From Octopus vulgaris (lineage: Eukaryota): a stretch of 64,000 bases of DNA. The DNA lies in the NCBI GenBank assembly GCA_951406725.2, contig OX597839.1, positions 23,250,001 through 23,314,000 of the forward strand, written 5' to 3'. Made by a program: the position numbers and the translations under genes. Of this stretch, positions 1,736 to 53,605 are shown piece after piece (within the stretch, counting starts at the first letter, position 1; every line of letters starts with the position of its first letter). Below the pieces are notes generated by a model that was given only the letters and a program-made list of their open reading frames with translations, searched no databases and had not been told where the DNA came from.

Positions 1736-2173
1736 TGAGTTATTCTATTCAACACTCAGACGACTCAAACAATACACTGTTTTCTTTTTTTAAAACACAG
1801 TTGGGTGTAACAAAGTGCAAATTAGGCTGTTATTTTTAGCACACCACACAACCATGTGCAGGCTTTAGGTATGAAACTAGAGTTCTTTATAATCCATTAT
1901 AATCCATAAATACATCTTGTTAATCCATCTTTGAAGAATTATTATTGAGGTTACTGAAACAGGAATAAATTAGTCTGTTTCAAATTATGTGTGTGTATAT
2001 AATGGTATGTTTATAGATGTATATGTTATGGGGTGGAGGTGGGGTGCATTAGTATGCAGTATATGAATATGTGTAGATATAGCCTTTCTTTTCTTATTTT
2101 GACACAAGGCTAGTAATTTTGAGTGGTGCAGAATTCGATTAATCAGTCCCAGTGTTCAACTTGTATTTAAAGT

Positions 2174-4117
2174 GAGACCTTTGTTGGAGACCTTGAAGAG
2201 AGGCGCCAGTGTTGGAGACCTTGAGAAGAAGGGCCTGTAATAGTGACCTTGAAGAGAAGGGTTAATGTAGGAGACCTTGAAGAGAAGGGCCAGTGTTGGA
2301 GACCTTGAAGAGAAAGGCCTGTATTGGAGACCTTGAAGGGAAGGGCTAGTGTTGGAGACCTTGAAGGGAAAGGCCTGTATTGGAGACCTTGAAGGGAAGG
2401 GCTAGTGTTGGAGACCTTGAAGAGAAGGGCCTGTATTGGCGACCTTAAAGAGAAGGGTTAATATTGGACACCTTGAAGAGAAGGGCCAGTGTTGGAGACC
2501 TTGAAGAGAAGGGTTAATATTGGAGACCTTGATGAGAAGGGCCTGTATTGGCGACCTTGAAGAGAAGGGCCAGTGTTGGACACCTTGAAGAGAAGGGCCA
2601 GTGTTGGAGACCTTGAAGGGAAGAGCCTGTATTGGCAACCTTGAAGAGAAGGGTTAATGTTGGAGACTTTGAAGAGAATGGCCAGTGTTGGAGACCTTGA
2701 AGAGAAGGGCCAATGTTGAAGACCTTGAAGAGAAGGGCCAGTGTTGGAGACCTTGAAGAGAAGGGCCAGTGTTGGAGACCTTGAAGAGAAGGGCCAGTGT
2801 TGGAGACATTGAAGAGAAGGGCCAATGTTGGAGACCTTGAAGAGAAGGGCCAGTGTTGGAGACCTTGAAGAGAAGGGTTAATGTTGGAGACCTTGAAGAG
2901 AAGGGCCAGTGTTGGAGACCTTGAAGAGAAGGGCCAGTGTTGGAGACCTTGAAGAGAAGGGCCAGTGTTGGAGACCTTGTAGAGAAGGGCCAGTGTTGGA
3001 GACCTTGAAGAGAAGGGCCAGTGTTGGAGACCTTGAAGAGAAGGGCCAGTGTTGGAGACATTGAAGAGAAGGGCCAATGTTGGAGACCTTGAAGAGAAGG
3101 GCCAATGTTGGAGACCTTGAAGAGAAGGGCCAGTGTTGGAGACCTTGAAGAGAAGGGCCAGTGTTGGAGACCTTGAAGAGAAGGGCCAGTGTTGGAGACC
3201 TTGAAGAGAAGGGCCAGTGTTGGAGACCTTGAAGAGAAGGGCCAGTGTTGGAGACCTTGAAGAGAAGGGTTAATGTTGGAGACCTTGAAGAGAAGGGCCA
3301 GTGTTGGAGACCTTGAAGAGAAGGGCCAGTGTTGGAGACCTTGAAGAGAAGGGCCAATGTTGGAGACCTTGTAGAGAAGGGCCAGTGTTGGAGACCTTGA
3401 AGAGAAGGGCCAGTGTTGGAGACCTTCAAGAGAAGGGCCAGTGTTGGAGACATTGAAGAGAAGGGCCAATGTTGGAGACCTTGAAGAGAAGAGCCAATGT
3501 TGAAGACCTTGAAGAGAAGGGCCAGTGTTGGAGACCTTGAAGAGAAGGGCCAGTGTTGGAGACCTTGAAGAGAAGGGCCAGTGTTGGAGACCTTGAAGAG
3601 AAGGGCCAGTGTTGGAGACCTTGAAGAGAAGGGCCAGTGTTGGAGACCTTGAAGAGAAGGGCCAGTGTTGGAGACCTTGAAGAGAAGGGCCAGTGTTGGA
3701 GACCTTGAAGAGAAGGGCCAGTGTTGGAGACCTTGAAGAGAAGGGCCAATGTTGAAGACCTTGAAGAGAAGGGCCAGTGTTGGAGACCTTGAAGAGAAGG
3801 GCCAGTGTTGGAGACCTTGAAGAGAAGGGTTAATATTGGAGACCTTGAAGAGAAGGGCCAGTGTTGGAGACCTTGAAGAGAAGGGCCAATGTTGGAGACA
3901 TTGAAGAGAAGGGCCAGTGTTGGAAACCTTGAAGAGAAGGGCCAGTGTTGGAGACCTTGAAGAGGAGGGCCAATGTTGAAGACCTTGAAGAGAAGGGCCT
4001 GTATTGGCATCCTTGAATAGAAGAGTTAATGTTGGATACCTTGAAGAGAAGGGCCAGTGTGGGAGACCTTGAAGAGAAGGGCCAATGTTTGGAGACCTTG
4101 AAGAGAAGGGCCAGTGT
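2174..4117. repeat. 28-bp minisatellite, about 69 copies
   Basis: Unit GAGACCTTGAAGAGAAGGGCCAGTGTTG. It is homogeneous in the centre and diverged at the edges, and explains the long repetitive ORFs at 2402-4131. Confidence 0.97.
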
Positions 4118-29026: not shown

Positions 29027-29028
<2 letters not shown>

Positions 29029-29324
29029 AATTAATCAAAATAAAAACAGCGGTACCGCATTATGTCGTATGCGAATGAGAGGATTTGCACCCCCAACGTA
29101 GAATTTTTGATGTAACACATGTCCTTGAGGTAGTAATTGTGCGCGGCTGAAGAAAGCCATAGACACACATTATGCATTGTTATAAATCCGTCTAATAAAG
29201 GCCCGAAACATATGTACCGCTGAATCCTTGGCATCATATTTTTATTTTGATTAATTTACTCTACCTACACCACCAAACGGTATATACAGGTGCTTACAAT
29301 TATCAAGTTCTCACCCTGAATTTT

Positions 29325-29388: not shown

Positions 29389-29497
29389 TATGTGACGGTT
29401 ATTCAGTTGCCATTAACTGACAAGATGCCTGAGCAGATTTCCGCCTTGACATCCGAAACTCACAGTTTTATTATGGCCACCAAATAATTGCCACATA
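29389..29497 (+). ncRNA. Hammerhead motif (G8 to A, probably inactive) in a pLTR-like element extending to about 29575
   Basis: CTGACAA GATG...CATC C GAAA CTCACAG TT. Homologous to 53531-53605. Confidence 0.6.
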
Positions 29498-51833: not shown

Positions 51834-51977
51834 TTAAACTTAAATGCTTAAGTGAATCGAACGGCTTTTTGTGTGTTTCTTAAACACCTTCCACGCTGCA
51901 ATTGTTTTCGCTTCAGCACACGATATATATATATATACATAAATTAATCAAAATAAAAACATGATGCCAAGGATTCA

Positions 51978-52055
51978 GCGGTACATATGTTTCGGGCCTT
52001 TATTAGACGGATTTATAACAATGCATAATGTGTGTCTATGGCCTTCTTCAGCCGC
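51978..52055 (-). ncRNA. Type I hammerhead ribozyme (left arm)
   Basis: Reverse complement of 52311-52388. Confidence 0.85.
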
Positions 52056-52310
52056 GCACAACTACTACCTCAAGGACATGTGTTACATTAAAAATTCTAC
52101 GTTGGGGATGCAAATCCTCTCATTCGCGTACGACATAATGCGGCAACAGCACAAAAATGAAGCGTCCATCTCGTTCCTCTCACAATCATTGACGAGATGG
52201 ACGCTTCATTTTTGTGCTGTTGCCGCATTATGTCGTACGTGAATGAGAGGATTTGCATCCCCAACGTAGAATTTTTGATGTAACACATGTCGTTGAGGTA
52301 GTAATTGTGC

Positions 52311-52388
52311 GCGGCTGAAGAAGGCCATAGACACACATTATGCATTGTTATAAATCCGTCTAATAAAGGCCCGAAACATATGTACCGC
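52311..52388 (+). ncRNA. Type I hammerhead ribozyme (right arm)
   Basis: GCGG CTGAAGA A GGCC-ATAGAC...GTCTAATAAA-GGCC C GAAA CATATG TA CCGC. Palindromic stem III ACATATGT, GUA site, predicted cleavage after 52384. Confidence 0.85.
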
Positions 52389-53237
52389 TGAATCCTTGGC
52401 ATCATGTTTTTATTTTGATTAATTTACTCCACCACCAAACGGTATATACAGGTGCTTACAATTATCAAGTACTCACCCCAAATTTCTATATATATACATA
52501 TATAGGACGGGCTGCTTTCAGTTTCCATTCCCAAATCTACTCACAAGGCTTTGGTTGGCTCAAGGCTATAGTAGAAGACACTTGCCCAAGGTGCCATGTG
52601 GTGAGACTGAACCTAGAACCACGTGGTCGGGAAACAAGCTTCTTACCACACAGCCACTCCTGCACCTATATATATATATATAGTCCATACACAACTAGAC
52701 TCAACACTATCTAAGCATGTTTTTATCTTTCATCTTTCATACTCATATTTTGAATATCCGAACATGTCATGTAACACTCACTCCCATCTTGTCTTCTGTC
52801 ACAATATGATATCCTACCCTTCTGATATATTCTCCTTTTGCACTAAGGAGAACAGTAATATGTAATTAATTTAATTATAATTAAATTCATTTCTAATTTT
52901 TTCCACGTTTTTTTACATGTTAATATTACCGTTTGAAATGATCGCATGCATGGATTCAAATTTTCAAAAACTTTTAACACCTTCTCCATCTTTGATTGTT
53001 TGTTATATGTCTTCTATAAATGCTCATAACACACCTCATATACATACATAGATAGAACATGCTTTCTATGTTATGTCCCAAGAAGATTTTATATATTTTT
53101 ATATATTTTTTATGTATTTTTATATAATTTTTATGACGAAAAATGCGAGCGATGTATAAGTACGCAGGCAAGCAGAGTTACAACACAGTAATTTCCCTTT
53201 ATTTAACGGTATTTCTTCATAGCGTTTTCAAATAGCC

Positions 53238-53300
53238 AGATAACCGAAGAGATGGTGTTGTGGATTTCCACTTCAGCATCTGAAACTCAGAGTTTTATCT
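53238..53300 (+). ncRNA. Hammerhead motif, U4 to C variant
   Basis: AGATAA CCGAAGA GATGGTG...CAGCATC T GAAA CTCAGAG TT TTATCT. Confidence 0.65.
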
Positions 53301-53530
53301 TGACTATCGAGTAATGTAACATATTATTGTATAGATAAATTTCCTCTATTTACATAATATTGAGGTCTCTTTCTTTCTTTTGTTATCTTACCGTTTTATC
53401 AATACATACATACATAGATTTTTTCCCTCTATGTAACGGTCATCCTAATAGCTCTTTTGTTTGTCTTAATAAAGGTTATTTACATAGTAATTTCCCTTTG
53501 TTTAACGGTCATTTTCATAGCACTTATTGA

Positions 53531-53605
53531 TTGTCTTGATAACTGACGAGATGCCGGAGCAGTTTTCCCCACCGACATCTGAAACTCTGAGTTTTATTAT
53601 GGCAA
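53531..53605 (+). ncRNA. Type I hammerhead ribozyme
   Basis: TTGTC-T-TGATAA CTGACGA GATGCCGG...CCGACATC T GAAA CTCTGAG TT TTATTA-T-GGCAA. GUU site, predicted cleavage after 53593. Confidence 0.75.

Follow-up and report, generated by a model that had tools for sequence, protein, structure and literature searches.

Head-to-head hammerhead repeats in Octopus vulgaris: a likely by-product of the insertion of a Hydra-clade Penelope-like retrotransposon

Copies that are inverted, truncated at the 5' end and tailed on one side only are typical of Penelope-like elements (PLEs), and the origin of PLE tandem and inverted structures is named as an open question by Craig et al. (PMC8557442). The Hydra clade is described in section 11 of the same work by a DKT motif, a CxCX5C linker, CxxC and CxH motifs, the lack of CCHH and a (TA)n target (Craig et al., 2021, PMC8557442). 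One of its members, Penelope-13_HM, has the same anatomy as the octopus locus reported here, a 5'-truncated inverted copy with a hammerhead on both strands (PMC8557442). This means that the anatomy as such is already in print. In Schistosoma, dual motifs lie on opposite strands, 100-700 bp apart (PMC4209133). PLE hammerheads with a short palindromic stem III are active as dimers and had no activity as monomers (PMC4209133), and the Poseidon hammerhead requires protein for its activity (PMC11167929). In vitro, both strands are cut and extended by a Poseidon protein, which has two RNA start sites, one on either side of the tail, and has been modelled as a dimer (PMC11167929). Like the octopus family, the Penelopes of Adineta vaga have inverted pLTRs, a one-sided tail, palindromes at inverted junctions and N-rich ORF inserts; they differ in their low copy number, and self-priming on an antisense template is the mechanism put forward for them (PMC3846280).

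The window analysed here is a stretch of 64,000 nt from the O. vulgaris genome (2.80 Gb in 227 contigs) and is dense in microsatellites and repeats. By inverted-repeat analysis, it contains a palindrome with arms of 235 bp each (51940-52174 and 52192-52426) that mismatch at four pairs of positions (52126/52240, 52089/52277, 52074/52292 and 52062/52304). This bears out the initial annotation, which had given 235-bp arms with about 4 mismatches and a 17-nt loop. It was also right about the extent of the palindrome; the insertion, however, does not stop with the right arm but includes a 60-nt tail, which extends it to ~52486. The left arm lies on the minus strand (51940-52186, reference positions 384-630) and is a 5'-truncated 3' end (pLTR) that stops at a tail-less site. 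The right arm on the plus strand (52192-52426, reference positions 396-630) is a 5'-truncated pLTR, too, and is followed on the same strand by the Penelope 'tail' (52427-52486). Compared with other copies (68-70 nt), the tail has a 9-nt deletion at this locus; in full-length elements, it runs on into the 5' UTR and the ORF. The head-to-head junction is the 17-nt loop (52175-52191), which is element-derived, most of it being the inner 12 nt of the left arm. The loop occurs only once in the 2.8 Gb genome when up to 1 mismatch is allowed, so the palindrome has not been propagated as a whole and is not a mobile unit.

On both sides, the insertion is bordered by a (TA)n target, which was read from the plus strand at 51928-51941, where the last 2 nt are common to the element end, and at 52487-52500. 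A CA-interrupted TA tract of 14 nt is identical at both ends. As a target-site duplication it is suggestive only, since such tracts are common in this region. Across loci, a script called target-site duplications in 2 of 38 cases compared to 0.35 expected (P 0.027) and did not call the one in the window, which amounts to weak support. The window arms are 1.7% apart, which agrees with the earlier view that the feature is young; relative to the family majority, two changes in 235 bp are private to each arm (~0.85%). If the calibration cited in PMC13282606 is applied (a distance of 0.09 for 25 My), the insertion would be roughly 2 My old, a very loose estimate from four changes. A second insertion of the same family is located in (TA)n at 29027-29323 on the plus strand. 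It had been regarded as a 29-kb copy of the palindrome and turned out to comprise a 22-nt inverted tail-less stub (29027-29048) and one arm with hammerhead plus tail (29051-29323), and is not a two-ribozyme structure.

A hand-written descriptor confirmed the positions of the two hammerheads, which had been annotated correctly. The type I motif is found at 51978-52055 on the minus strand, with predicted cleavage after 51982, and at 52311-52388 on the plus strand, with predicted cleavage after 52384. In each arm, it is composed of stem I GCGG/CCGC, the core CUGAAGA, one extra A, stem II GGCC/GGCC, GAA, an 8-nt self-complementary stem III and an A at the cleavage site. On the plus strand, stem I comprises 52311-14/52385-88, the core begins at 52315 and GAA is at 52373. 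Four strict motifs were counted in the window vs 0 in every one of 100 block shuffles. The Rfam scan yielded no match at the gathering score, no hammerhead match and, by E-value, only hairpin-type chance matches; mir-15 and other Rfam matches below the gathering score were rejected as hairpin artefacts. The motif fits the Hydra-clade entries with a type I hammerhead in the pLTR in File S2 of PMC8557442. With the minimal hammerheads of PLEs described in PMC4209133 it has in common the extra base between positions 9 and 10.1, G10.1-C11.1 and the palindromic helix III, whereas these belong to a different host and family.

The palindrome RNA is predicted to fold into a single rod (-446 kcal/mol, z -50; 0/100 shuffles as good). 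For the hammerhead to form, the predicted cost is +126 kcal/mol on either strand of the full palindrome vs 7 in one arm. The 235-bp rod of a read-through RNA is, therefore, predicted to bury the ribozyme, in line with the sequestration that had been envisaged for it. The other outcome considered in the initial annotation, that a transcript of the palindrome is cleaved close to its 3' end, appears unlikely on the same folding grounds. Since each transcript carries a single sense motif with a stem III of the dimer-dependent type, self-cleavage of the locus transcript is unlikely, and the sense-strand dimer-type ribozyme in a read-through transcript is predicted to be inactive. We infer that the two hammerheads are passengers of the pLTR. 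Conservation of the motif was measured on ORF-selected copies, not on copies chosen by the hammerhead 33-mer. Between subfamilies, 0/37 motif positions differ vs 21/302 other positions (P 0.15), and within copies differences amount to 0.44% in the motif vs 1.83% elsewhere (32 ORF-selected repeats, which are not independent). The motif, hence, looks conserved in the source elements, which points to a role in the full element and not in the stub.

The initial annotation had proposed an undescribed, orientation-independent ribozyme retroelement. Motifs in both polarities and their apparent conservation in the source elements would suit a self-contained, non-autonomous element of retrozyme or viroid-like type that moves or replicates as a unit and is silenced by its own rod. 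The unique loop largely refutes this idea, and all 25 close junctions of the genome-wide sample presented below differ from each other, as do the arm lengths at individual loci. Furthermore, one sense ribozyme per strand can free neither a unit nor a circle, the predicted rod makes ribozyme folding costly, and a dimer-dependent stem III left the tested relatives inactive as monomers (PMC4209133). With an anatomy known from print and an autonomous source, a self-contained element is very improbable. Non-LTR retrozymes (bioRxiv 10.64898/2026.07.22.740005) are similar in being non-coding, having a type I hammerhead and being related to PLE pLTRs. They were rejected as an assignment because they need direct tandem units with at least two motifs on the same strand, whereas the palindrome has one motif of the family per strand in inverted arrangement. 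Viroid-like ambisense RNAs are circles released by ribozymes of both polarities; the palindrome has one site per strand and a single-copy loop.

The arms are almost certainly the 3' terminal repeat (pLTR) of a Hydra-clade PLE. A genome search with the arm found many loci at 97-98% identity, and a 33-mer derived from it has 290 exact matches genome-wide. The outer ends of the copies fall on two sites, both in (TA)n: the arm end seen in the window and a site 68-70 nt further. Inward of the arm, copies share a 3' UTR of ~2 kb, which is followed by an ORF. Full copies consist of pLTR and tail, ORF, ~2 kb 3' UTR and pLTR, that is, repeat and tail are also found upstream of the start codon; the unit length was 4393-4797 bp in 6/6 copies measured. 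The autonomous partner that had been recommended as a search target was, thus, found: Three fetched copies (L085, L090 and L091) contain intact, stop-free ORFs of 836 aa with a reverse transcriptase (RT) of telomerase-like type plus a GIY-YIG endonuclease, and five full-length stop-free ORFs are present among the 56 matches listed. The pLTRs of the aligned copies with stop-free ORFs are only 87-93% identical to the window, and the inspected ORFs of the young subfamily are broken or truncated.

The AlphaFold model of the ORF protein has a pLDDT of 82, and its best fold match is TERT (E 2.9e-9). Pfam gave no RT or GIY-YIG match for the 836-aa protein and a GIY-YIG match for two of six homologues scanned; Pfam and PDB sequence/profile searches with the ORF yielded nothing informative. 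The GIY-YIG motif (VIYSC..YIG, aa 715-734) is C-terminal. DKG is modified to DKT (ADKTG at aa 125; DK[TS] in 118 of 120 homologues), a CxCX5C linker is present at aa 696-704, CxxC at 793-796 and CxH at 823-825. By eye, there is no Cys pair between the GIY and YIG motifs, i.e. CCHH is absent. The RWK position reads RIRWA in the element protein and RWK in 87 of 120 homologues. TA repeats border both ends in 40 of 41 pairs (39 sampled and 2 from the window). Apart from the RWK position, these features correspond to the Hydra clade with its C-terminal GIY-YIG, DKT, CxCX5C, CxxC/CxH, (TA)n target and type I hammerhead near the 3' end (PMC8557442). The assignment to the clade is drawn from these motifs and from a reading of the published alignment. 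The octopus elements differ from the clade in their length of 4.4-4.8 kb (4393-4797 bp) vs generally below 3 kb, which is a tendency and not a rule, and in a tail of 68-70 vs 30-40 nt (PMC8557442). Further differences are the ~2-kb microsatellite-rich 3' UTR, an 836-aa ORF with three N/T/R-rich inserts, RWA for RWK and a long loop 2. Both hammerhead and protein are different from those of Hydra-1_Obim, as judged by eye from the supplement of PMC8557442. This is a new family within the known Hydra clade. A description of it was not found in the literature searched; Repbase/Dfam or the repeat library of PMC13282606 may hold one.

Other assignments were discarded. In Naiad/Chlamys PLEs the endonuclease is N-terminal, whereas here it is C-terminal; Naiad and then Neptune/Nematis were dropped after the 836-aa ORFs and the Hydra-clade definition in PMC8557442 had been read. 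A MITE or foldback DNA transposon does not apply, because the ends differ (tail vs no tail) and the interiors are truncated retroelement body. Among five named homologues, two come from Argonauta. The N/T/R-rich inserts of the ORF in L091 (2096-4603) comprise aa 492-541, 622-652 and 658-690, are absent from most homologues and disordered in the model. A second Hydra-type ORF (L051, 520-2100, minus strand), 34% identical to the ORF of the present family over 477 columns, is fused to a fragment of the 3' UTR of this family.

For a genome-wide survey of head-to-head insertions, the first 100 of the 290 pattern matches by position were used. They correspond to 80 loci on contigs C1-C7, taken with 1.5 to 5.5 kb or more of flank; the window is not in this sample. 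The script found a head-to-head pair in 39 of the 80 loci; in L166 and L178 a second arm is present that the script filter had missed. Arm lengths range from tens of bases to >2 kb. Of the 39 pairs, 35 combine a tailed with a tail-less end, three more do so with the tail alignment trimmed at 688-689, and one combines a tail with a partial tail. Pairs of two full tails or of two tail-less ends do not occur among them. This means that 38 of 39 pairs have one arm with the tail end and one ending ~68 nt upstream, which deviates from 0.5 with P 1.5e-10. Among further loci outside the 80-locus sample, most obey the same rule. Exceptions are L002 with a tail and a 10-nt partial tail, L016 with a tail and an end at 545, and L094 with two tail-less ends and identical flanks, which is probably a later duplication or an assembly effect. 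A flank is common to L093 and L094, which lie on different contigs, and it borders L094 on both sides (later inverted duplication or assembly effect). Both end sites, pLTR reference positions 623-630 and 694-700, are AT-rich with AATTT just before the (TA)n junction; this AATTT could allow short pairing with the primer.

Long palindromes can arise as read artefacts. The duplicated flanks at L094 would agree with an assembly fold-back as the source of the window palindrome, too. There, however, the arms differ at four positions with two private changes each, their outer ends and flanks are not alike, and the rule of one tailed and one tail-less end holds at 38 of 39 other loci, so that an artefact is very improbable. 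Among contigs from four sequencing runs, none bridges the unique loop. A 544-nt skip matching an empty site was seen in 3/4 DNA-type runs, with only 21 TA-rich letters on one side; neither result was counted as evidence.

The palindrome is, very probably, a 5'-truncated insertion of a Hydra-clade PLE, in which two head-to-head 3' repeats lie in (TA)n and both cut ends likely acted as primers. In such an event, the GIY-YIG domain would cut both strands of (TA)n, perhaps ~14 bp apart. One DNA 3' end would prime at the tail end of the element RNA and the other ~68 nt upstream. Both cDNAs would stop early, in the window after ~300 and ~250 nt, and then be end-joined. In L1 twin priming, both DNA ends prime on the element RNA and an inversion results, the arms of which copy non-overlapping RNA. 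The octopus family would be similar in its two-ended priming. It differs in that both arms copy the same 3' region, so a palindrome is produced; this requires either one RNA that is read twice with strand displacement or two RNAs from one source. The arms of one insertion differ at 1.8% of sites vs 5.3% in permutations, and variants common to both arms affect 1.74% of sites vs 0.38% in permutations (maximum 1.05% in 2000; 31 pairs in both cases). Therefore, the arms either have a common source or became homogenised afterwards.

Self-priming or fold-back on an antisense template, as published for A. vaga, would explain the inversion within the same element, with unequal arms due to later central deletions (PMC3846280). 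The variants common to both arms fit such single-strand copying, and some junctions contain template jumps (L101). The published model has difficulties with the arm lengths. Of the 25 close junctions, 14 have the tail-less arm and 11 the tailed arm as the one that extends further 5', and in L031 the tail-less arm is longer by ~3 kb. Since a tail-less cDNA cannot serve as the template of a tailed arm, nor a shorter arm as that of a longer one, simple fold-back fails for 14 junctions, barring later deletions. Long palindromes lose their centres. Fold-back with asymmetric central deletion as well as gene conversion between arms could mimic unequal arms and common variants. Among unpaired loci, 18 clean cases end at each of the two sites. 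Since tail-less ends alone are as frequent as tailed ones, the tail-less site behaves as a start site of its own, which speaks against self-priming. On balance, self-priming is possible but doubtful, and the end rule favours two-ended priming at two fixed start sites over it.

Two-ended priming of reverse transcription itself is, judged from the sequences of these insertions, moderately probable. Whether an RT dimer primes from both cut ends and each end is assigned its own fixed RNA start site, one at the tail end and the other 68 nt upstream, is evenly balanced. Poseidon PAc of Anolis resembles the octopus family in a tail defined by two start sites, an AT-rich target and the cutting and extension of both strands (PMC11167929). 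It belongs to another clade, and the part of the paper cited here draws no connection between its start sites and the two ends of inverted insertions; against an end assignment, Frangieh et al. found no start-site difference between strands in vitro (PMC11167929). A two-ended start-site rule was not found stated in the literature searched, and subscription papers may hold it. Of the 25 close junctions, 11 are overlaps of 1-11 nt, three are blunt, and in the other 11 the arms are separated by 1-19 nt. The head-to-head junction at L023/L101 (contig C1, ~113,257,200-113,257,550) contains five re-copies of 42-58 nt in both orientations, suggesting repeated template jumps.

The locus is ordinary transposon debris, and the palindromic copy was likely dead on arrival. 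Likewise, the palindrome is likely a by-product of how the element inserts rather than a ribozyme element of a new kind. What the family-wide end rule adds to the mechanism of PLEs is modest and testable. A young high-copy family with intact ORFs provides a countable rule: one tail and one tail-less end, either arm longer, and variants common to both arms. If the two-ended reading is true, hundreds of young insertions would constitute in vivo evidence for two-ended priming and against antisense self-priming, and each event would leave a hairpin that could silence the family.

Through this family, long hairpins are scattered over the genome, and if transcribed they could be relevant to dsRNA pathways. 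A hairpin that is incidental in origin might supply Dicer or ADAR with long dsRNA and silence the family in trans. The predicted 235-bp rod and 16 of the 80 loci with both motifs complete and a junction of <=19 nt are in agreement with this, as are the small RNAs from Penelope copies of A. vaga (PMC3846280). Against it, none of the 36 ORFs of >=150 aa in the window could be recognised as an exon. In addition, the differences between paired arms of the genome sample show no A-to-G skew (8 A>G vs 11 T>C among 108), a check that is sensitive only to edits fixed by retrotransposition; an ADAR signature is absent from the DNA copies examined. Such a role is, therefore, improbable.

The window contains further repeats. 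Two type I hammerhead motifs of another Hydra-like family, at 53244-53294 and 53543-53593 on the plus strand, are arranged directly 299 nt apart, and the first has a changed core base. This pair (53244-53593) is a short partial tandem that might allow a dimeric ribozyme to form. By eye, a decayed relative seems to lie near 29410-29470. The descriptor found a minimal hammerhead motif of a third family at 187-213 on the minus strand, and a 28-bp unit is repeated at least 66 times in an array at ~2070-4000.
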